Source of the DNA: Escherichia coli
GTDB taxonomy: Bacteria > Pseudomonadota > Gammaproteobacteria > Enterobacterales > Enterobacteriaceae
Reading direction: 5' to 3' (one strand)
DNA: 9,240 nt
Assembly: GCF_003334385.1 (NCBI RefSeq)
Contig: NZ_QOWN01000070.1
The notes under the pieces are model-generated. The model worked only from the letters and a program-made list of their open reading frames with translations. It was not told the DNA's origin and made no database searches. Below are positions 281-9,240 of this stretch, piece after piece (positions within the stretch are counted from its first letter, which is position 1; every line of letters begins with the position of its first letter). Made by a program: the position numbers and the translations under genes.

Positions 281-471
281 TGGAAGGATAGCGGTCATGT
301 GATGCCGGTTTCCCGGTAACTCAGCACCGGTATCTGAGTCAACGTTTTCTCTACTGGGTCATTTCCGATACGCCCTGCCTGCTGACAGGCTTTCATCACA
401 TCTGAAAATATAGCACCCTGACTGATACTGTAGTACCCAAGGTTCCAGAAACTGTGATGTATCCGGCACAG

Positions 472-494
472 AAAAGCCCCTCCGGAGAGGGGCT
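472..494 (-). terminator. Intrinsic terminator, minus-strand orientation
   Basis: Perfect 8-bp inverted repeat agcccctc / gaggggct with loop cgga (475-494), preceded on plus by gaaaa; the minus-strand RNA is a hairpin followed by UUUUCUGUG. Confidence 0.55.
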
Positions 495-518
495 GGAGAG
501 TGGCGCTATGTGCCATTG

Positions 519-699
519 CATGGTGCCGGGTGCCTCCCGGTGAGTTCAGTATCAGCACCTGAACCCGCACAGAAAGGATAAGGGTCGGTGACAAAACACC
601 AGTTGCTGATTGCCCCTCCGCACAGGGGGATTCACCATGCCAGTTTCTTTTAACAAACTCCCCGCAAACCAGACAACAGTCAACCGCCTGAATTGTGAG
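519..699. repeat. Copy B of the ~180-bp structured repeat
   Basis: Same three conserved blocks as copy A (519-549, 612-640, 688-699) with diverged spacers. A second hairpin in both copies (gttcag...ctgaac in B, gttcag...ctaaac in A) varies between copies. Confidence 0.6.
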
Positions 700-704
700 A
701 CATT

Positions 705-729
705 TAAAAAAAAGCCCGCAAAAGCGAGC
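705..729 (-). terminator. Intrinsic terminator downstream of the tRNA cluster, minus-strand orientation
   Basis: A-run 705-713 then hairpin gcccgc-aaaa-gcgagc (714-729). The single C/A mismatch on plus becomes a G-U wobble in the minus-strand RNA, followed by eight or more U. Confidence 0.6.
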
Positions 730-744
730 CAGGGAAAATAAGTG

Positions 745-821
745 TGGCGCGTTCTACTGTATTCGAACCAGTGACCGATTGCTTAGAAGGCAATTGCTCT
801 GTCCGGCTGAGCTAACAACGC
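745..821 (-). tRNA. tRNA-Arg (anticodon UCU), phage-type (argO-like position)
   Basis: Minus-strand read: GCGTTGT-TA-GCTC-AGCCGGACA-GAGC-A-ATTGC-CTTCTAA-GCAAT-CGGTC-ACTGG-TTCGAAT-ACAGT-AGAACGC-G-CCA. D and anticodon stems are perfect, the T-loop is TTCGAAT, and the 3' CCA is encoded. One mismatch each in the acceptor stem and T-stem. Confidence 0.7.
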
Positions 822-834
822 AGGATACAGATAA

Positions 835-911
835 TGAACCGCCTTCGGGGACCCGAACTCCGCGCAACCAGCTTCGAAGGCTGGCGCTCTTTCCTGATGA
901 GCTAATGGCGG
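835..911 (-). tRNA. tRNA-like gene, possibly tRNA-Arg (anticodon UCG) or a degenerate tRNA pseudogene (argN-like position)
   Basis: Minus-strand read: CCGCCAT-TA-GCTC-ATCAGGAAA-GAGC-G-CCAGC-CTTCGAA-GCTGG-TTGCG-CGGAG-TTCGGGT-CCCCG-AAGGCGG-T-TCA. D and anticodon arms are perfect, but the T-loop is non-canonical (TTCGGGT), acceptor and T stems each carry one mismatch, and the 3' end reads TCA rather than CCA. Confidence 0.4.
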
Positions 912-918
912 TATGTGA

Positions 919-994
919 TGGTGGCCCTTGCTGGATTTGAACCAGCGACCTGGCGATTATGAGTCGCTCACTCTCACCACTGAGCTAAAGGGCC
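919..994 (-). tRNA. tRNA with anticodon CAU (tRNA-Ile2 or tRNA-Met type; ileZ-like position)
   Basis: Minus-strand read: GGCCCTT-TA-GCTC-AGTGGTGA-GAGT-G-AGCGA-CTCATAA-TCGCC-AGGTC-GCTGG-TTCAAAT-CCAGC-AAGGGCC-A-CCA. Acceptor and T stems are perfect, the T-loop is canonical, CCA is encoded; 76 nt. Confidence 0.75.
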
Positions 995-1004
995 GAGCCA
1001 AAAA

Positions 1005-1033
1005 ATAATAATCAGATGAAAATCAATAATCAA
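1005..1033 (-). promoter_or_regulatory. Sigma70-like promoter for the tRNA cluster
   Basis: On the minus strand, TTGATT (plus 1028-1033), a 17-nt spacer, then TATTAT (plus 1005-1010), ending about 10 nt upstream of the tRNA 5' end at 994. Overlaps the 3' end of the AraC-like ORF. Confidence 0.35.
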
Positions 1034-1736
1034 GCCCTTGCCTGGATACATATCTGTCTGGCGGGAAGCCATAATAGCGGTGAAATACAGAAATAAAGTA
1101 GGACCTGCTTGAATAACCGCATTTTTCTGCTATAGCCTGTCCATATCCATGCCGGGAACATAACATATTTACAGCAACACGCATCCGCTCTTCCAGCAAC
1201 AAGCGACTGAACATGCCCCCTTCATTTTTCAGTTTTGTCTTTAACAAACTCTCACTCATATGCAACTGTAGAGCAATCGCACCAAGCGTCCAGCTTGCTG
1301 ATATATCTGTCTGAATTATCGCCCTGACTTTGGCACTTATGCTGGATAAACATCCACTTAAAAACAATGACATCCGTTCATCTGTTTCAAACAGAGACAG
1401 GCAGGCCATCATAAGAAACATATCCGTGGCCTCTCCGGAAAATCCCTGGCTGGTAATTAAAGCCGCAGCCAACGCAGGATTGTTGGGTTCCAGCAACAGG
1501 TAAAGCGGAATGTCAGTCAGACGAGTCCTCGTCAGCTTATGCTGACTTTCCAGATATTGACTTACGACGGATTCGCTTATATCGACAATTTTAACTTTGC
1601 CATAATGCATAAGGAAAAGCTCCCTGATGCATTTGGTGGCCAGAACAACTGAGCCTGGCTTAAGTGACAACGTATCCTTTTCAAGAAAAATATTAATTGG
1701 GGAGCAAACCATGATAACTGAACAGACAACAGCCAT
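1023..1736 (-). CDS. AraC/XylS-family transcriptional regulator, YdeO/AppY/GadX-like
   Basis: ORF track, 237 aa, ATG start. The N-terminus MAVVCSVIMVC resembles the M-x-x-VCSV start I recall for YdeO/AppY. The C-terminal region (SESLLKTKLKNEGGMFSRLLLEERMRVA ... IAEKCGYSSRSYFISVFHRYYGFPP) has the pattern of the AraC-family HTH. From memory, not searched. Confidence 0.8.
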   Translation of the reverse strand: MAVVCSVIMVCSPINIFLEKDTLSLKPGSVVLATKCIRELFLMHYGKVKIVDISESVVSQYLESQHKLTRTRLTDIPLYLLLEPNNPALAAALITSQGFSGEATDMFLMMACLSLFETDERMSLFLSGCLSSISAKVRAIIQTDISASWTLGAIALQLHMSESLLKTKLKNEGGMFSRLLLEERMRVAVNMLCSRHGYGQAIAEKCGYSSRSYFISVFHRYYGFPPDRYVSRQGLDY

Positions 1737-1857
1737 TATAATTTTACTTTCATTAGCAATTGGTTAGCTCAATTATAGCCCCAAAAGGTAAATTATCATC
1801 AACACATAAGCAAAGGACTGACAGGTGTCGCCCCCCCACCAGCCGCCCATTCACCAC

Positions 1858-1884
1858 AAATAAAAAGCCTTCAGGACTGAAGGC
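1858..1884 (-). terminator. Intrinsic terminator at the 3' end of the small winged-helix ORF, minus-strand orientation
   Basis: A-rich run 1858-1866 then hairpin gccttca-ggac-tgaaggc (1867-1884); the minus-strand RNA is a hairpin followed by UUUUUAUUUG. Overlaps the stop codon at 1871-1873. Confidence 0.55.
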
Positions 1885-2068
1885 GTCTGTAACAACCGCA
1901 CTGATAGTCTGCCAGACCCGCCATAACAAGCTGGGTCAGTATTAACTGGCAGCGTTCGCGTGAAAGGTAAGTATTCTGCGCAATCTCCCCGACTGTCGCC
2001 GGTTCGGTAACGCTTAATTCATCAAACACAACTCTGGCGGTTTCTGTCATATCCTGCTGTTTCAGCAT
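1871..2068 (-). CDS. Small winged-helix DNA-binding protein, possibly FaeA/PapI-like
   Basis: ORF track, 65 aa, ATG start with a GGAAAGGG purine-rich stretch about 9 nt upstream. The pattern ATVGEIAQNTYLSRERCQLILTQLVMAGLA resembles the recognition-helix region of PapI/FaeA-type regulators as I recall them. Low-certainty assignment. Confidence 0.5.
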   Translation of the reverse strand: MLKQQDMTETARVVFDELSVTEPATVGEIAQNTYLSRERCQLILTQLVMAGLADYQCGCYRRLQS

Positions 2069-2192
2069 GTCTTTTTACCCTTTCCGGTTAACGTGACATA
2101 CCAATAACTCTTGTCTAAAAAGCCAGCAAGATAAAAAGCCAGTATTCACGACCACCAGCGTGTTTACTGTACTGCACCAAGTTTACAGGTAC

Positions 2193-2217
2193 AAAAAACC
2201 CGCTCAGTGGCGGGTTT
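2193..2217 (-). terminator. Intrinsic terminator (minus-strand, possibly weakly bidirectional) in the divergent intergenic region
   Basis: A6 run 2193-2198, perfect 6-bp hairpin acccgc-tcagtg-gcgggt (2198-2215), then ttt. The minus-strand RNA is a hairpin followed by UUUUUUGU; on the plus strand only three U follow. Confidence 0.5.
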
Positions 2218-2281
2218 AAGTTGTGTGGCGAAGTAACCACTCTTAACACAATACAATACTTTTTGCGTACGCGTTAGTGTT

Positions 2282-2322
2282 TTGATAGAATTTTCAGCCA
2301 CATAAAAATTCATTCTTATAAT
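2282..2322 (+). promoter_or_regulatory. Putative promoter elements upstream of the AT-rich cassette
   Basis: TATAAT at 2317-2322, 12 nt upstream of the ATG at 2335, and TTGATA at 2282-2287. The 29-nt spacing is too long for a canonical -35/-10 pair, so only the -10 is credible. Confidence 0.3.
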
Positions 2323-2334
2323 TCGGGATATATA

Positions 2335-3510
2335 ATGGATATAACTTGTTTAGAATGTGGCAATGTTCTTGACGACCCAACTGTAGCTTGCGATAAATGC
2401 GGTGCCACGCCTCATGTTGTAGTGCTGGGCAAACAATCGTACTTTCCTATTGGTGCTGTAACAGCAAATCTTGAAAAAAATGATTCAAGAGCATTTGATT
2501 ATCGATTAGGTGAAGTTTGGGATCTAAAAAATGAAGTCACATCTGAATTCATAACCAGAATTGAGAAAAAATTTAGCCGAAAAAACAAATTTCATAACTT
2601 CCTAGACTCAGATCACAACCCTTCATCCATTCCTACGATCCTAAAAAAATACATTAATAAAAATAATGAATTCATTGATTTATCTAGAGCTATAATAGAG
2701 AAGCTTAAACATAATGCTAATAACGAATCGAGAGTTGCCCAACTTCAGGGGGGGAGCGTTGTTTTCATCCACTATAAGTCTACCGAACCAGAGGATTTGG
2801 GGAAACTTCTAATCGTAATGGTTGATAAACAAAGCGCCTATGACTTTGATTCGGATAAGTTGACCCCAACAAGATTAAATCCAATTAATACCGATGCCTT
2901 ACGGCAGGCTGCGATGTTCGATTTAACTTTATTCGAAGCCAGTTATCCAGAAAACAAGGGTGACTCATATGTACATTTCTTGCAAGGTAAATCTAAAAGC
3001 GATTTTTTCAAAGACTCATTAGGTTGCCGACATGATTCGGACAATAAAAGAAGCATTCAGCAATTATTCAGTGCTATAGATATTTTTGCTAGTAAAAACT
3101 CACTCGGTCGTGTACTGCGTGATACTATTGACAATGAAGTTAAATCCTTACTGGAAAAAAAATCAAAAGATAAACACGGAAATAAGTCCGTTAAGATAGA
3201 GGATATTTCAAAAATAATTGACTCATGCCTGACTGATTCACACAAATGTAAGGGAACGTTTGTCGATTTTGTTAATCTTAATGGTTTCCAGATTGACCCT
3301 CAATTTGAACCAACTCCTAAAGCAGCTGAAAGCGCGCTTACAATTGAAGTGGCAGATAACGACAATAATTTTAAGTTGAAAATAATGCGTGGAGCTATTG
3401 GAGACGAAAAGTCAAATAAGCCTGTAATTCTCACTGACAACAAATGCGAAATTGTGATAAAATTGAGTCAGGCAAATTATGATGAACTCAAAAGATATAG
3501 AGACAGCTAA
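2335..3510 (+). CDS. Cassette gene 1: N-terminal zinc-ribbon fused to an NdpA/YejK-like (NA37 family) nucleoid-associated-protein-like domain
   Basis: ORF track, 391 aa. The DNA is AT-rich (about 30% GC on a sampled 60-nt line, versus about 58% on a sampled line in the helicase gene). CxxC-x10-CxxC at C5, C8, C19, C22. The motifs GGSVVFIHY ... LLIVMVD ... AAMFDLTLF ... YVHFLQGKSKSDFFKDSLG match the order and spacing I recall for E. coli YejK (GG-V-LF-HY ... LLVAVL ... ARIDLTEW ... [22 protein letters not shown]). From memory, not verified. Confidence 0.8.
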   Translation: MDITCLECGNVLDDPTVACDKCGATPHVVVLGKQSYFPIGAVTANLEKNDSRAFDYRLGEVWDLKNEVTSEFITRIEKKFSRKNKFHNFLDSDHNPSSIPTILKKYINKNNEFIDLSRAIIEKLKHNANNESRVAQLQGGSVVFIHYKSTEPEDLGKLLIVMVDKQSAYDFDSDKLTPTRLNPINTDALRQAAMFDLTLFEASYPENKGDSYVHFLQGKSKSDFFKDSLGCRHDSDNKRSIQQLFSAIDIFASKNSLGRVLRDTIDNEVKSLLEKKSKDKHGNKSVKIEDISKIIDSCLTDSHKCKGTFVDFVNLNGFQIDPQFEPTPKAAESALTIEVADNDNNFKLKIMRGAIGDEKSNKPVILTDNKCEIVIKLSQANYDELKRYRDS

Positions 3511-3512
3511 TA

Positions 3513-4727
3513 ATGACAATTGCTGATGACTTATCAAGATTAGCGCAGATTATTAACGGAGCCTCAAGCAGAGTTGAGGGCTACTACACTGTCATAAGTC
3601 TTGAAGAAAGCATTGTTATTGTAAATAGTTCTGAAATAATTAGACTGTTACAATCTATAGGTTATAAAAAGGCAACAACCTGCATCGAAAATAATGAAAT
3701 TTGGCTAGATCGCCAAGCTTCATCTTGGGATGACGCTATAATTTATGAGAATGTTGAGTCTTTTTGGTCTAGAGTAAACACCCAAAACGCTCTTCCGAAA
3801 AATTATATCATCGGAACGCCGTTAATACTCCCTACTTCTAAGAATGAAAGCATCGAAAAAATCCATATTTTCTTTATGTGGAAAGATATCCTTTCATTAA
3901 TTGCTGATCATCATAACAGTGACTGCTCTGTCTTATTTTTCACCAATGAAGACAAAAGTTATACAGTCGAACTCACGCATTTTTTACAATATAGCGAGAT
4001 TAATCGCTTATCGAACTCGTCTCTTAAATATGAAATTATAAAGGAGCTTCTCGACACAATAAAAATCAATGATTTACACAAAAGCGAGCGCAAGCTCGTT
4101 ATACGCTCAGCCATAAACGAAGTATTTAAAGCAAATGGTACGTTCAATTTCTTTGACTTGCTTAACTCTACTGAACTCGTCAGGAAAAAATATGATGAAC
4201 TATATGAGATTTACACAAAGAGGTTTTCTGTAAATAAAATTCTTAACGAACTCGATGAGAAAAATCTTGAGTTCACGAGTAAAATTAACGAATTCATATC
4301 ATCTAATCAGACAAAAGCATTGACTATTCCCGGTGCATTAATAGCTGCTGGTGGCTTAGTGAAGGCTAATGAAACAACCGAAGCAATATTGATTATCGCA
4401 GGACTTTGGATGATAAAAAAAGTCAATTACATTTCTATTGAGATATTCAATGAAACATTCGACAACTTACGTTCTCGAGTGGAGTCCGCTTTCGATAAGT
4501 ATTTAAAGTTTGAAGAAAATAAAGAAATCAAAGATAATGCAGATAGTATTAAGAGTAGCATTACAGGTTTGATTGATAAAGCTAAAAAAAGGATGAGAAC
4601 TGTTAAATATCTCGCATCAGCCATGTTTTATGGAGGCCTTATTTACGTTGGATATAAACAGTTCCCAGTCTTTTTTGAAAAATCGGCAGTAAATCTATTT
4701 TATTTTTTATGCCATACTATAAGCTAA
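3513..4727 (+). CDS. Cassette gene 2: predicted membrane-associated protein of unknown function (candidate effector)
   Basis: ORF track, 404 aa. The ATG lies 2 nt after the gene 1 stop, indicating an operon. AT-rich. Hydrophobic segments ALTIPGALIAAGGLV and AILIIAGLWMI (about nt 4318-4420) and the C-terminal YLASAMFYGGLIYVGY (about nt 4608-4680). No catalytic motif recognised. Confidence 0.8.
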   Translation: MTIADDLSRLAQIINGASSRVEGYYTVISLEESIVIVNSSEIIRLLQSIGYKKATTCIENNEIWLDRQASSWDDAIIYENVESFWSRVNTQNALPKNYIIGTPLILPTSKNESIEKIHIFFMWKDILSLIADHHNSDCSVLFFTNEDKSYTVELTHFLQYSEINRLSNSSLKYEIIKELLDTIKINDLHKSERKLVIRSAINEVFKANGTFNFFDLLNSTELVRKKYDELYEIYTKRFSVNKILNELDEKNLEFTSKINEFISSNQTKALTIPGALIAAGGLVKANETTEAILIIAGLWMIKKVNYISIEIFNETFDNLRSRVESAFDKYLKFEENKEIKDNADSIKSSITGLIDKAKKRMRTVKYLASAMFYGGLIYVGYKQFPVFFEKSAVNLFYFLCHTIS

Positions 4728-5063
4728 CATTGCTAAACAGCCGTCAACAAACCCCATTGCAGTTTGCAGTTCCTTCCTAATTGTGCCATCAGAGCATTTT
4801 CTCTTCTTCGCAATAGTACGTAATGAGATACCGATAACAAAGTGGGCGATGATGAGCTCATATTCCTCTGGTTTATACCTTCTCAACCGAGCCACACAAC
4901 TGTCTATCATGATGCCTTCGTCATCATCACACTGAATCCGTGACTTTTTGCCATGAGGTAAAAGTCCCTTGAAACCAGCCGCTATCGGCTGCCAGTCCAC
5001 TCCGCTATTGTCTGAAGCAGCCCAAGCTCCCCAACGATCCATTACTTCATACATATCACGCAT
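4707..5063 (-). CDS. Phage antitermination protein Q (QuuD-like small Q family)
   Basis: The ORF track calls 4707..5078 from a TTG. I prefer the in-frame ATG at 5061-5063, which has GGAGA 6 nt upstream and gives MRDMYEVMDRWGAWAA..., matching the M-R-D...ERWGAWAA start I recall for DLP12 QuuD-type Q proteins. The 3' end overlaps cassette gene 2 convergently by 21 bp. Confidence 0.75.
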   Translation of the reverse strand: MRDMYEVMDRWGAWAASDNSGVDWQPIAAGFKGLLPHGKKSRIQCDDDEGIMIDSCVARLRRYKPEEYELIIAHFVIGISLRTIAKKRKCSDGTIRKELQTAMGFVDGCLAMLAYSMA

Positions 5064-5080
5064 CAACTTTCTCCACAAAA

Positions 5081-6100
5081 TCAGGCCAGCACACCAATTG
5101 CCAGCGCACGATCGATAAAACGAAATATCAACTCCAGCTGGGAGCCATACTTCTCTTCAAATGCCACGGTATCCGCATGCAGCTCGTCGTGATGCTTTCT
5201 GCACAAAGGCAACACAAAGAGATCATGCGCTTTTGTACCCATTCCCCCCTGACCGTGGCCTATCAGATGGTGGGGATCATCAGCAGGCTTTCCACAACAT
5301 GCACACGGCTGCGTCTTAACCCAGCGCGTGTACTTTTCATTAACCCAGCGGCGACGTTTGGGGCGTAACATAAAAGACTCCGGCGACTCCGGATCCACTT
5401 TCAGCGCCAGCACCTTTTTCGCTTTATCCTGGATGATGCTGGTGGCAGGAACCGAAGGCACAAGGTCACTTTCCCGGGTGACAGACGGCACAACAGGCTT
5501 CGGTAATCTCAGTGCCTTACGGGCTGCACTTTCCGGTAAGGCATCCGCCAGGTCATTACGAATCAGCCACCAGCACAGTTCCGGCATTGTCACAACGTGA
5601 CTGTCATCAAAACCAAGATCACGGCGCACAACAGATAACACCCAGCGGGCACAGTTATCCGTTGCCATTGCTTCCAGCCGTTCCGTGAACTGGTCACGGA
5701 GAAGATTGTCACAGTGCCAGCACAGACGGATTGCACCCGGCGCGTGTCGCATTGTGGTCATGTTCTCGCTGTGCCATCCGGAATGAGGCCACTGACAGCC
5801 CTTTTCACGAAGTAACCAGCTTTCAAGACATTCCACCCCACCAGTACAACGAATAACTGCCTCATTGCGGAACACGGCCCGAACGGCAGGATCATCCGCC
5901 AGCGGTTGTGATGCTGCCGGAACGGCACCGCTGGCGAAAGATGAATAACGTTCCGGCTCAGGCTCCAGCAGGACACGCCCCTGCATAAACAGGGGCATCA
6001 GCTCTGAACCGGGCCTGAACAATACAATCCCCATACGCGGGGCAATTTCAGGGGTCAGCAGTGCTCTCACGGTCACCTCAGCAAACGATATTGAATGCAT
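5081..6100 (-). CDS. DUF968-like phage protein with a C-terminal Cys/His (HNH-like) motif
   Basis: ORF track, 339 aa, ATG start. The C-terminal motif CACCGKPADDPHHLIGHGQGG...LPLCRKHHDELH resembles the YdfU/DUF968 family found just upstream of Q in E. coli prophages. From memory. Confidence 0.7.
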   Translation of the reverse strand: MHSISFAEVTVRALLTPEIAPRMGIVLFRPGSELMPLFMQGRVLLEPEPERYSSFASGAVPAASQPLADDPAVRAVFRNEAVIRCTGGVECLESWLLREKGCQWPHSGWHSENMTTMRHAPGAIRLCWHCDNLLRDQFTERLEAMATDNCARWVLSVVRRDLGFDDSHVVTMPELCWWLIRNDLADALPESAARKALRLPKPVVPSVTRESDLVPSVPATSIIQDKAKKVLALKVDPESPESFMLRPKRRRWVNEKYTRWVKTQPCACCGKPADDPHHLIGHGQGGMGTKAHDLFVLPLCRKHHDELHADTVAFEEKYGSQLELIFRFIDRALAIGVLA

Positions 6101-6121
6101 ACAGAGAAAAAAACTCAGTCA

Positions 6122-6379
6122 TCACGCAGTAAACTCCTTCACCAGTATTTCAAACTGGCTTACCTGTCCTTCCAGTTCCGCCACGCAATCCACCAGCTCA
6201 TCCACCGCCTTTTGTGTGCGGTGTTTTGCCTGCAGCAGATCACGAAGCGCCGGAGTAAGCTGCTTGCGGAGCGTATCTTTTTTCACGCTCGTTTTTTCCA
6301 TCTGTTCAGCACAACGAAGCATCTCCTGCGCCTGCCGACGAAGTTGTTCCGGTGAAACAGTGATTGTTCTGTTGTTCAA
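6122..6379 (-). CDS. Hypothetical small phage protein (85 aa, predicted helical)
   Basis: ORF track; TTG start overlapping the helicase stop (TTGA), with GGAG about 8 nt upstream; no in-frame ATG until residue 20. Charged, helix-like composition. No family recognised. Confidence 0.45.
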   Translation of the reverse strand: MNNRTITVSPEQLRRQAQEMLRCAEQMEKTSVKKDTLRKQLTPALRDLLQAKHRTQKAVDELVDCVAELEGQVSQFEILVKEFTA

Positions 6380-7776
6380 AATAAACGCTCCGTTTTACTG
6401 CCCGACATGCGGTTATTGCTGTATCTGCGCGGATTGCCCGGCGTCATGGGTGTGGAAAGAACCCGGGCACTCTCCTGGTCCACAGGCAGAAAATGTCCGT
6501 TATGAAAACGCCGGTAAATGGTCCCGAGCGTGCCATTACGCTGTTTCGTGATGTTGATTTCTGCTATGCCTCTGGCCTGAGTTTCCGGGTTGTATACCTC
6601 ATCCCTGTAAAGCATCAGAATGATGTCGGCATCCGCCTCGATTTCCCCGGAGTTTTTCAGGTCCGAGTTCATTGGGCGTTTATTGGGTCTGGATTCCACG
6701 CCGCGGGAGAGCTGGCTCAGAGCAATCAGCGGAAAACCGCCGGATTTTGCCAGGCTTTTAAGTCCCTTTGAGATTTCCCCCACCGCAAGGTCGTGACGCC
6801 CCGTGCTGCGGGTTTTAATCAGGCCGAGGTAATCGACCACCACCAGCGCCGTTTCCGGGTGTTTCATCCGGTGGTGCTTCGTGGTTGCACATATCTCATC
6901 AATGGTCAGGTTTGCCTGGTCCACCATCCAGATATTACGCCCCGTCATTCGTCCCACGCCCTGCGAGAAACGCGCCCAGTCTTCATCTTCAAAACGGGCA
7001 ACAGACTTAAGACGGGATACCGGCATTCCACCGGCAGCAGACACCATACGTTCACCAATCTGGATGTTCGCCATCTCCATGGTGAACAGAAGCACGCCAT
7101 GCCCCTGCTCAGTCACCTTGTCGATGATGTCCAGCGCAAGTTCGGTTTTCCCCATCGAAGGACGGGCGGCAATGAATACCAGGTCTCCGGGCTCCATACC
7201 GCCCGTTTTTGCGTCCAGTTCATCAATACCGGTCATCAGCGCCCTGGATTTCTCCAGTCCCTGATTGCGGCATTCAACACGGTCGACCACTTCCGGAAGG
7301 ACATCATCAATGTGAACCGGCTGAATGACGCCCTTTCCGGTCGACAGTGAGGCCATCATGTTCTGCACATCCTTCAGGGCATCCTCGGCTGCTTCACAGG
7401 TATACGCATCACGTAAATTCTGTAATGCTTCAGTCAGTGTTTTTTCTGCATCGCGCAGTGCGGCATTGCGCCGCAACGCTGCGACATAGTGCTCCAGTGA
7501 AGACTTCACCCAGGTTTTGCGTCCGGTGTCGGTAATCACCGGGGCAAGTTCCGGCATCTCATTGCACAGCAGTACGGGGTCAATGACGCCGGATATGCGA
7601 GCCTGTCTGCAAATCCCCGCGTAAATATCCCGGTACTGACGCACAAAAAATACATCCGCCGGAAGTGTGGCCAGAATATCCATCACTTCCGGATCGGCCC
7701 CACGCAGAAAAAACGCACCGATGACAGCGCCTTCCAGGTCATCGTTACGCCATGCCGGGGTGTTCTGGCTGGTCAT
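6376..7776 (-). CDS. DnaB-family replicative DNA helicase (phage-encoded)
   Basis: ORF track, 466 aa, ATG start with GGAGGTG 7 nt upstream. Walker A ARPSMGKT, and the block ALSQLSRGVESRPNKRPMNSDLKNSGEIEADADIILMLYRDEVY closely parallels E. coli DnaB ([44 protein letters not shown]). Confidence 0.9.
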   Translation of the reverse strand: MTSQNTPAWRNDDLEGAVIGAFFLRGADPEVMDILATLPADVFFVRQYRDIYAGICRQARISGVIDPVLLCNEMPELAPVITDTGRKTWVKSSLEHYVAALRRNAALRDAEKTLTEALQNLRDAYTCEAAEDALKDVQNMMASLSTGKGVIQPVHIDDVLPEVVDRVECRNQGLEKSRALMTGIDELDAKTGGMEPGDLVFIAARPSMGKTELALDIIDKVTEQGHGVLLFTMEMANIQIGERMVSAAGGMPVSRLKSVARFEDEDWARFSQGVGRMTGRNIWMVDQANLTIDEICATTKHHRMKHPETALVVVDYLGLIKTRSTGRHDLAVGEISKGLKSLAKSGGFPLIALSQLSRGVESRPNKRPMNSDLKNSGEIEADADIILMLYRDEVYNPETQARGIAEINITKQRNGTLGTIYRRFHNGHFLPVDQESARVLSTPMTPGNPRRYSNNRMSGSKTERLF

Positions 7777-8672
7777 GCGGCAACACCTCCGATACGAGAA
7801 CGGTAGCTGGGCCAGTTAAACGACAACCAGTTGCGCCCGTCATCGGTGATCCTGTCGGCAATCCGGGGACTGATGAACGCCCACAATTCTTCCGGTGAAA
7901 GATTGCTGATCAAGATAGTTGGCAAAATACCCTCATACCGGGCATTGATAATTTCCTGCAAAATGGCCATTTCAGCCGCACTGCCAAACTGAACGCCGAC
8001 TTCGTCGACAATCAGCAAATCCAGTGACGCATAATGCTCAATGACGTCATCCGCTGTTTTTTCACTGTCATTCCGCCAGCAGTTTTTCACAGCCCGGGTA
8101 AGGCGCATCACGTCGGTGATCTCCACACTGGCCAGATAGTTACGGATGATGTGTTTTGCCATTGATACCGCCAGATGATTTTTCCCGGTACCGCAACTGC
8201 CGGTCATAACAAGACTGGTACCGTTCTCCAGCATATCTGGCCAGTTCTCCGCATAGCGGCGACAGGCCGCAAGATTTCTGGCTGCGTCAGGATTAACCTC
8301 CAGATAATTATCAAACTCGCAGTCCCGAAAACGCAGAGCAATTCCGGCGTTATCAGTCAGTTCTTCCGCCTTGAGGGACGACAGTTCCATGGTCAAATCA
8401 CTGGCCTCAGCGATCAAGCAGTCAGGGCAGCATGAAATTTTTTCTCTGTCCTCGCCATTACGATCGATCCACACCAGTATATGCGTACGATATTTACCGT
8501 GTTTTTCGCAATATCCGCGACCTTCACGCATCAGGCAGGAACGATAAGGCCATGGCTTTTCGCCCTTCTGAGCAAATGCAATCTCTGCCCGTAACTCATC
8601 CATTTCTGCCCGTAAATCATCCATTCGCGCCTGTAGTCTTGTTTGTTTCTCACGTTGGTCAATCGTCATCAT
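7773..8672 (-). CDS. DnaC-like helicase loader (AAA+ ATPase)
   Basis: The ORF track calls 7773..8681 from a GTG. I prefer the ATG at 8670-8672, with GAGGTGA about 5 nt upstream. Walker A GSCGTGKNHLA, Walker B LLIVDEVG, and C-terminal FNWPSYRSR (E. coli DnaC has FNWDSYRSR). The stop overlaps the helicase start (ATGA). Confidence 0.85.
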   Translation of the reverse strand: MMTIDQREKQTRLQARMDDLRAEMDELRAEIAFAQKGEKPWPYRSCLMREGRGYCEKHGKYRTHILVWIDRNGEDREKISCCPDCLIAEASDLTMELSSLKAEELTDNAGIALRFRDCEFDNYLEVNPDAARNLAACRRYAENWPDMLENGTSLVMTGSCGTGKNHLAVSMAKHIIRNYLASVEITDVMRLTRAVKNCWRNDSEKTADDVIEHYASLDLLIVDEVGVQFGSAAEMAILQEIINARYEGILPTILISNLSPEELWAFISPRIADRITDDGRNWLSFNWPSYRSRIGGVAA

Positions 8673-8682
8673 CGCTGTCACC

Positions 8683-9240
8683 TCAGAATGTCAATTTGTT
8701 ACTGGATTTACCAAATTTGTCAGACATGGCTCCCAGGCCAGCCAGGACATCGACCTGTCGCTGTCGCCCACCTCCGTGAGCGGCTGGCTGTTGCCAGTAA
8801 TCTTCGAAGTGACGATCGGGTCCAAAGAACGTCGCAGCCTGCTTCACGAACTGTGTGCCGGTATTTCCTGTAGCACGTACCCAGGCGGCATACCGCTTCA
8901 CGCCATCAAGCATGGTCTCCGGTTTTATTCCCTCCCTGATACGGGCTTTCCAGGCTTTGAAGGCTGCTGACTTGGAATTGCCACCAGCACGTTTGGGATA
9001 TTCCTGCCAGGCCTGTTCAAATTCCGGTGAATATTCCTGTCTGGCAGAACGCGCTGGTGCAGACGCGTCAGCGGATGCGCCAATAGTGTTTTTAGTCTCC
9101 GTTGTAATCTCTGTAGTAATCTCTGTATTTGTATCAACATTCGGCGTATCCCCTGTTCCGTTACGACGTCGGGGGGTGTTCCGTTTTAACGTAATAGCTG
9201 TATCGCTGATTGCATTATTGCTGTTACTTTCTGGCGAAAC
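8683..9240 (-). CDS. Phage replication initiator (O-like replisome organiser), C-terminal part; 5' end lies beyond the window
   Basis: I translated the minus strand by hand from 9240 down to the stop at 8683-8685 and found no in-frame stop. The track's 76-aa ORF (8683..8913) is the tail of this frame. The C-terminal sequence EFEQAWQEYPKRAGGNSKSAAFKAWKARIREGIKPETMLDGVKRYAAWVRATG...FFGPDRHFEDYWQQP resembles the conserved C-terminal domain of lambdoid replication proteins. It sits immediately upstream of the DnaC-like gene. Confidence 0.7.
   Translation of the reverse strand, partial: VSPESNSNNAISDTAITLKRNTPRRRNGTGDTPNVDTNTEITTEITTETKNTIGASADASAPARSARQEYSPEFEQAWQEYPKRAGGNSKSAAFKAWKARIREGIKPETMLDGVKRYAAWVRATGNTGTQFVKQAATFFGPDRHFEDYWQQPAAHGGGRQRQVDVLAGLGAMSDKFGKSSNKLTF
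9104..9127. repeat. Perfect tandem 12-mer (GTAATCTCTGTA x2) inside the O-like gene; candidate iterons
   Basis: 9104-9115 is identical to 9116-9127, with partial copies on both flanks. A 9-mer TGTTCCGTT also recurs at 9155-9163 and 9177-9185. The tandem encodes the TEITTEITTE linker on the minus strand. Confidence 0.55.

Follow-up and report, generated by a model that had tools for sequence, protein, structure and literature searches.

Background

Immune systems in which a YejK-like nucleoid-associated protein (NAP) is combined with an effector have been described under the name of PANGU (Li et al., bioRxiv April 2026, 10.64898/2026.04.06.716658). A further system, DS-1, was found with DefensePredictor and validated by experiment, and through it the YejK domain is presented as newly validated in defence (DeWeirdt, Mahoney and Laub, Science 2026, PMC13092281); neither DS-1 nor DefensePredictor is cited in the PANGU report. 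The present work deals with a cassette of two genes at positions 2335-4727 of a stretch of 9,240 nucleotides (nt) from Escherichia coli (assembly GCF_003334385.1, contig NZ_QOWN01000070.1), hereafter the window, which a previous sequence-only reading had presented as a candidate undescribed defence or exclusion system. Our comparisons identify this cassette, with near certainty at the sequence level, as DS-1, a published and tested two-gene anti-phage system. The best explanation of the locus as a whole, to which we ascribe a probability of about 0.7, would be that of DS-1 carried as cargo by a lambdoid prophage and acting through a PANGU-like mechanism.

In type I PANGU (Pag1A and Pag1B), the NAP dimer threads DNA and binds just fragments longer than about 200 bp, and a DNA-binding-deficient mutant of the NAP renders the system toxic (10.64898/2026.04.06.716658). 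Type II PANGU consists of the NAP Pag2A and of Pag2B, a protein with an N-terminal acidic domain, termed DMK, and a C-terminal transmembrane domain. Both genes of PANGU-Ecu are required, none of the constructs was toxic, including those bearing a single gene, and growth curves point to abortive infection. Upon T4 infection a fusion of Pag2A to green fluorescent protein (Pag2A-GFP) departs from the nucleoid, the binding of Pag2A to the DMK domain has a dissociation constant (KD) of 19 nM, and T4 mutants in denA (EndoII) escape from PANGU-Ecu. PANGU-Ff and PANGU-Ecu restrict T4 and, as reported, neither T1 nor T5 (all from 10.64898/2026.04.06.716658).

Identity of the cassette

The elements of the cassette are the following:

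2335-3510, plus strand: DS-1A, a zinc ribbon and YejK/NA37-like nucleoid-associated protein of 391 amino acids (aa), putative sensor (NF053868.1, Pfam NA37, PHROG 3767)
2347-2400, plus strand: N-terminal four-cysteine zinc ribbon of DS-1A (C5, C8, C19, C22; cysteine conservation)
3513-4727, plus strand: DS-1B, putative membrane effector of 404 aa (NF053869.1, PHROG 5023, AlphaFold2 (AF2) model)
2282-2309, plus strand: candidate sigma-70 promoter of the cassette (TTGATA, 16 nt, AAAAAT; inferred from a consensus scan)

The two open reading frames (ORFs) meet at a TAA-TA-ATG junction, with a gap of 2 nt. They are the sole long plus-strand ORFs, the surrounding prophage genes being all on the minus strand, and the cassette is antisense to the lambdoid prophage backbone, as the sequence-only reading had described. 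Their GC content is 34.9%, as compared to 47.9% in the left flank (1-2192) and 52.6% in the right flank (4728-9240). The contrast in composition that had been claimed is therefore real, although the values given for it (30% vs 58%) were overstated, and the foreign origin that had been deduced is upheld both by the composition and by the comparison with prophages that bear other cargo in the same place. The promoter candidate has 9/12 matches to the consensus and is situated where homology to other prophages stops; it is a weak candidate, because 12 sites were found vs 10.4 expected in shuffled sequence.

DS-1A scored 451.4 bits against the NCBIfam equivalog NF053868.1 (DS1_1_antiphage; cut-off 330), with residues 10-377 aligned to positions 3-369 of the 369 of the profile, and DS-1B scored 375.2 bits against the equivalog NF053869.1 (DS1_2_antiphage; cut-off 315), with the whole profile (1-337) aligned. 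DS-1A is identical over 391/391 aa to WP_000355468.1, whose sequence is given in Table S8 of PMC13092281, and DS-1B is identical to WP_000150292.1 over the 399/399 residues printed of a protein of 404 aa. In NZ_CP009050.1, where the DNA match is 100% identical, the annotation gives both accessions, and recent labels of the Prokaryotic Genome Annotation Pipeline (PGAP) for the two proteins are "nucleoid-associated anti-phage protein" and "anti-phage protein". The system as cloned (working identifier D390; contig NZ_RRVY01000002.1, 220602-222994, 2,393 bp; PMC13092281) has the gene order, 2-nt spacing and 2,393-bp span of the cassette in the window, and the genes themselves show no difference; it is to the right of 6080 that the prophage backbone of the window differs. 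The cassette is thus an exact copy of a named and experimentally validated system, already known and not new, and the description of the pair as undescribed has to be abandoned.

No match to DS-1A or DS-1B was found in PADLOC-DB v2 (2023), a negative result that is due to the age of the database and not to the absence of a defence role; since no model was available there, the pair was not recognisable from older knowledge. In genome scans, such a locus should be labelled DS-1 and not be counted as a discovery. What our analysis adds to the published description is the cargo slot, the pairing of the two genes in every distant locus inspected, a zinc ribbon limited to one clade, an N-terminal domain of DS-1B with no solved relative, and a phage range unlike that of PANGU.

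Phage range of DS-1

The identical pair, carried with its native promoter on a low-copy plasmid, restricted several phages in E. coli MG1655 (Tables S6-S8 of PMC13092281), so that the defence role proposed from the sequence holds. The panel consisted of 24 phages, and the values are given as -log of the efficiency of plating (EOP) in Table S7 of that work, under D390. The value was 7.6 for Bas1, for which no plaques were counted, 2.7 for Bas26, 1.7 for both Bas3 and T3, 1.0 for T5 and 0.9 for T7, with small plaques in the cases of Bas26, Bas3, T3 and T7; for SECphi27 it was about 0, the plaques being merely smaller. T4, RB69 and lambda have no row for DS-1 in the table, and the phenotype is flagged as replicated (PMC13092281).

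Bas1 (Bas01) is a T1-like phage of the Drexlerviridae and Bas26 a T5-like phage of the Markadamsvirinae, while the family of Bas3 was inferred from the BASEL numbering. T3 and T7 are T7-type phages, which degrade host DNA. T1 and T5 are cited as host-DNA degraders as well (10.64898/2026.04.06.716658). The target families of DS-1 (T1-like, T5-like and T7-like) fit a trigger based on the degradation of host DNA, as would be expected of a PANGU-like mechanism.

This range could also result from direct recognition, in which the zinc-ribbon NAP would bind phage DNA, either incoming or replicating, or a phage protein, and together with its membrane partner would stop the infection early, for instance at DNA entry or replication, with no killing of the cell, in a manner similar to superinfection exclusion. 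A narrow and uneven range, with a block of Bas1 of more than 7 logs and no plaques counted, is what such recognition would produce, and T4, a thorough host-DNA degrader, has no DS-1 entry. In addition, the PANGU systems that were tested reportedly leave T1 and T5 unrestricted, and therefore DS-1 may respond to a different cue. On the other hand, smaller plaques, as seen with T3, T7, Bas3 and Bas26, are what abortive or partial systems typically give, the target families are unrelated, having host-DNA degradation as a common trait and no obvious common protein, and the same architecture of a NAP plus a membrane protein is abortive in type II PANGU. Taking both sides together, we consider direct recognition, which is the chief rival of the PANGU-like mechanism, unlikely.

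Architecture of DS-1A and DS-1B

The first protein had been read as a zinc ribbon joined to an NdpA/YejK-like protein, and this description is borne out by a CxxC-10 residues-CxxC motif at the N-terminus of DS-1A and by a Pfam NA37 (YejK/NdpA) domain (E 1.5e-23). By sequence, the sole solved relative of DS-1A is E. coli YejK (PDB 9be2; phmmer E 1.2e-9), a housekeeping protein also known as NdpA, with which it has the NA37 fold family in common. DS-1A differs from YejK in having an extra zinc ribbon, in being part of AT-rich mobile cargo and in being always followed by an effector gene downstream, and its score against the YejK equivalog NF001557.0 (81.4 bits) is well below the cut-off of 341.

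The Pfam zinc-ribbon matches of DS-1A are weak (E 0.14-1.1), and an HHpred search by the authors of DS-1 gave a NinF-like match with 86% probability (PMC13092281). The four cysteines (C5, C8, C19 and C22) are kept in all six DS-1A-type proteins compared, which are 30-44% identical, and a CxxC...CxxC ribbon was not found in the NAP partners of three more distant relatives of DS-1B (in locus coordinates, L012 2325-3011, L013 1890-3008 and L014 1820-3001). Therefore, the ribbon marks the DS-1 clade. The gene call of the NAP in L012 (228 aa) looks truncated, NAP-like sequence being present upstream in frame with no intervening stop. No zinc ribbon is mentioned for PANGU (10.64898/2026.04.06.716658). 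Such a distribution of the ribbon, kept throughout the DS-1 clade and absent from more distant relatives, points to a clade-specific function, and in this respect it speaks for direct recognition.

DS-1B yielded nothing significant in Pfam. Its AF2 model (pLDDT, the predicted local distance difference test, of 86.4) starts with an alpha/beta domain (residues 1-165), after which helices extend to about residue 218, residues 1-218 forming a predicted N-terminal cytosolic domain. A long helix (220-268) then runs directly into a hydrophobic segment (269-285), and more long helices follow (288-331, 337-383 and 385-403). The best-conserved part of the family corresponds to residues 226-284, and three hydrophobic segments (about 269-285, 288-305 and 364-383) are conserved in position across it. 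The Kyte-Doolittle hydropathy of these segments is 1.6-2.6 in most homologues, which agrees with the membrane protein that had been proposed; in the allele of the window the agreement is less good, the best window of 19 residues reaching 1.56. Residues 1-265 have a net charge of -9 and an isoelectric point (pI) of 5.2. A sequence search of the PDB with the family profile of DS-1B gave no match, and the N-terminal domain of DS-1B is, on the grounds of that search, one with no solved structural relative. Foldseek rendered 112 matches of DS-1B in AFDB50 at E <=0.001, and nearly all of the matches listed are uncharacterised proteins of about 400 aa; the search of folds was thus uninformative.

Gene pairing, distribution and defence context

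The whole cassette is present in 106 of 5,426 complete E. coli genomes. As DNA it was found in none of 50,697 phage records (0/50,697), and a tblastn search of the same collection with DS-1B detected no homologue; DS-1A is represented there by distant NAPs alone, about 20% identical, in Pseudomonas phages. Homologues of DS-1B form 69 clusters in a database at 90% identity, and a library of representatives at 50% identity contains 769 matches to the DS-1B profile at E <=1e-3, 357 of them at E <=1e-10.

In eight distant loci (DS-1B homologues 22-38% identical; profile E to 1e-17), the gene next to the DS-1B homologue on its upstream side is of NAP size in all cases (8/8), and the product of this gene has a Pfam NA37 match in seven of them (7/8), which indicates that the pairing is obligate. 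Neighbours of the homologous pairs include genes for GajA/GajB, PDC-M01A/B and BstA, a BrxR-like WYL protein (with BrxR Pfam domains and a WYL match in PADLOC), integrases and P2-type tail genes (GpD, GpU). Both the co-occurrence of the two genes and their association with defence islands, proposed as checks in the sequence-only reading, have thus been found, the latter in the vicinity of Gabija, PDC-M01 and BstA. The DS-1 copy of E. coli PEC403 sits in a DLP12-like prophage in which a protein bearing a BstA C-terminal domain (L005 9555-10484) and the serum-survival lipoprotein Iss are encoded as well. This single prophage may hold more than one defence gene.

An operon of two genes separated by 2 nt, a partner that putatively damages the membrane and a place in mobile elements are also features of toxin-antitoxin or addiction modules. 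The membrane protein would then act as toxin and the NAP as antitoxin, resistance being a consequence of the shut-off of host gene expression. However, with 391 and 404 aa the two proteins are far larger than the usual partners of such modules, nothing hints at lability of DS-1A, and in type II PANGU no construct is toxic, not even those with a single gene. A toxin-antitoxin function of the pair is for these reasons extremely unlikely.

A probable cargo slot bounded by Q and its late promoter

Three elements on the minus strand delimit the place occupied by the cassette:

2193-2217, minus strand: intrinsic terminator hairpin of the late leader, tR'-like (AAACCCGC-CACUGA-GCGGGUUU followed by a U run; fold energy, Ayreon annotation)
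2219-2287, minus strand: conserved segment upstream of the terminator, putative Q-dependent late promoter and Q-utilisation region
4707-5063, minus strand: gene of the Q antiterminator family, facing DS-1B (PHROG 79, anti-termination protein Q-like; E 3.3e-50)

The Q gene corresponds to WP_001205470.1, placed by PGAP at 4707-5063, and its 3' end overlaps that of DS-1B by 21 nt (4707-4727). The hairpin at 2193-2217 has a folding energy of -13.8 kcal/mol (z -2.8), and 24 nt of it (2193-2216) are annotated as a terminator in phage Ayreon, upstream of the first late ORF. Ayreon holds the 24-nt hairpin twice (L002 3123-3146 and 3800-3823), on either side of small ORFs that separate Q from the first late gene; such a repeated hairpin could serve as a recombination handle for the swapping of cargo. 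Of the query, just the leftmost 150-240 nt (2069 to about 2290) are widespread, being present in 2,269 E. coli genomes and in many lambdoid and Shiga toxin (Stx) phages.

The comparison with related prophages shows that the segment between these elements is exchanged. In E. coli 0H26 (NZ_CP081782.1), homology to the window extends up to 2287 and resumes at 4759, with a different antisense two-gene pair between these points. This pair (WP_000868396.1, 308 aa, and WP_001131905.1, 182 aa; L003 3265-4726) fills what is the slot 2288-4758 of the window; no NCBIfam or PADLOC match was found for either protein, and the pair, which is unannotated, is an uncharacterised candidate for a defence role. 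In E. coli B20123 (NZ_CP142930.1), which has a different Q allele, homology extends up to 2250 and is found again from 5053; its slot contains one gene of 205 aa on the same strand as Q (WP_000360285.1; L004 3279-3896), with faint WYL-like PADLOC matches (E 0.0014). The segment 2219-2287 is fully common to 0H26 and PEC403, whose Q alleles are related to that of the window, whereas B20123, with its differing Q, matches just to 2250. PEC403 bears exactly 2195-5099, that is, the late-leader segment, DS-1 and Q, as one block in its DLP12-like backbone. A prophage of Yersinia enterocolitica has a pair of the DS-1 family in this slot as well, oriented alike; its A, B and Q proteins are 44%, 38% and 71% identical, respectively, to those of the window, and there Q and the B gene overlap by 37 nt (L010 5260-5296).

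According to these alignments, DS-1 probably lies in a variable slot for cargo, with Q on one side and the late promoter and terminator of Q on the other. This agrees with the cargo position next to Q that had been assigned to the cassette, other cargo being present in the same slot of other prophages. The cassette had also been placed directly between Q and the tRNAs, which is not the case: the terminator at 2193-2217, a 65-aa ORF and an AraC-type regulator intervene before the tRNAs are reached. As the slot holds differing cargo in related prophages, such as the pair of 0H26, it represents a better hunting ground for novelty than DS-1 itself.

In a scan of both strands, no terminator-like site was found near the junction between Q and DS-1B. 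Given this and the convergent overlap, Q and the cassette may influence each other by antisense transcription. It might be argued further that the pair serves mainly the prophage and that defence is a side effect observed on a plasmid, with the NAP silencing or organising AT-rich prophage DNA or with antisense transcription on Q stabilising lysogeny. The convergent overlap itself, and a similar one of 37 nt maintained in Yersinia in spite of 38-44% protein identity, are in line with such a service, as is the joint movement of the late-promoter segment, DS-1 and Q in a single block (2195-5099). Nevertheless, homologous pairs are found far from Q too, next to Gabija, PDC-M01, BstA, integrases and P2-type tail genes, and the pair defends MG1655 outside the prophage, so that we deem this explanation very unlikely.

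Proposed mechanism

The sequence-only reading had suggested the logic of a sensor plus a membrane effector, with abortive infection or exclusion as the outcome, and for the same architecture a sensor, a membrane effector and abortive infection are reported in type II PANGU (10.64898/2026.04.06.716658). Because of this common architecture, a PANGU-like mechanism can be put forward for DS-1. As far as the architecture described allows the comparison, both systems are bicistronic with the NAP gene first, both would have a partner with a cytosolic N-terminal domain and C-terminal hydrophobic helices (as predicted for DS-1B), and both have ties to defence islands and mobile elements. Type I PANGU resembles DS-1 in its YejK-like sensor and in the proposed logic, in which the sensor is released from a degraded nucleoid and then binds and activates its partner, but its effector, a GRel toxSAS, is a soluble alarmone synthetase, and DS-1B has no toxSAS or other Pfam domain. 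An analogous prophage system is that of lambda RexA/RexB, a two-gene abortive system in which a membrane protein that collapses the membrane potential is switched on by a cytosolic sensor associated with DNA. The likeness of Rex to DS-1 is an analogy; no relationship in sequence or fold was found, none having been sought, and rexAB is located in the immunity region and not in the Q slot.

By analogy with type II PANGU, DS-1A would reside on the host chromosome in uninfected cells, and would be freed when the phage degrades or displaces the host DNA. Once free, DS-1A would bind DS-1B at its cytosolic N-terminal domain, whereupon the helical membrane domain at the C-terminus of DS-1B would become active and damage the membrane, and the infected cell would no longer support phage growth. 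DNA binding by DS-1A, its release from the nucleoid, the binding of A to B, membrane damage and cell death are thus all attributed to DS-1 from what is reported for PANGU. We give even odds to DS-1 working in this way, that is, by nucleoid-release sensing that leads through a membrane effector to abortive infection.

Several points weigh against this interpretation. The mechanism relies on the PANGU analogy, DS-1 not being dissected in the work in which it was described (PMC13092281), and a direct block of a non-abortive kind would be compatible with the almost complete inhibition of Bas1 too. In the allele of the window, the hydrophobicity of DS-1B appears borderline for transmembrane helices, and its N-terminal region is just mildly acidic and is modelled as an alpha/beta domain plus helices. 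Finally, DS-1 restricts T1-like, T5-like and T7-like phages and has no T4 entry, whereas PANGU-Ff and PANGU-Ecu restrict T4 and, reportedly, not T1 or T5; the range of DS-1 is therefore roughly the inverse of that of the PANGU systems characterised so far. It is possible that DS-1 is a different member, with a different threshold or trigger. It is also possible that expression differs, a native promoter on a low-copy plasmid having been used for DS-1 and induction with isopropyl beta-D-thiogalactopyranoside (IPTG) for PANGU, or that the mechanism itself differs.

The DS-1 clade might constitute a mechanistically distinct branch of NAP-based immunity, whose invariant four-cysteine ribbon would sense a cue other than host-genome degradation of the T4 type, perhaps one specific to T1-like, T5-like and T7-like infection, and whose conserved overlap with Q might switch defence off, or temper Q, at the induction of the carrier prophage. 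We regard this as a rather doubtful proposal.

Features of the surrounding prophage

The remaining features of the window are the following:

1-186 and 464-669, minus strand: two copies of the STnc100 small RNA (sRNA) family (Rfam RF02076; 134 and 141 bits)
745-994, minus strand: three tRNAs, Met/Ile2(CAT), Arg(TCG) and Arg(TCT)
1023-1736, minus strand: YdeO/GadX-like AraC-family regulator (NF007407 at 108 bits, below the cut-off; PHROG 1450)
1871-2068, minus strand: ORF of 65 aa
5081-6100, minus strand: DUF968/HNH protein
6376-7776, minus strand: DnaB-like helicase
7773-8681, minus strand: DnaC-like loader

The AraC-type regulator (1023-1736), located between the late terminator and the tRNAs, is a further cargo gene; it may resemble the prophage-borne regulators of acid stress and type III secretion of enterohaemorrhagic E. 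coli (EHEC). The CAT tRNA of the cluster is annotated as tRNA-Ile by PGAP in NCCP15648. Stx-type lambdoid phages typically have such a tRNA cluster in their late region, but no toxin gene follows it within the window. The STnc100 copies, for which the gathering score is 47, belong to the late region, on the downstream side of the tRNAs, and the first of them is cut by the end of the window.

The backbone is a mosaic. None of the complete E. coli genomes of the collection spans at least 80% of the window. The best E. coli matches have 473-6080 in common at 99% identity and then diverge, carrying, to the right of 6080, KilA-N and RusA genes in place of the DnaB-like and DnaC-like genes.

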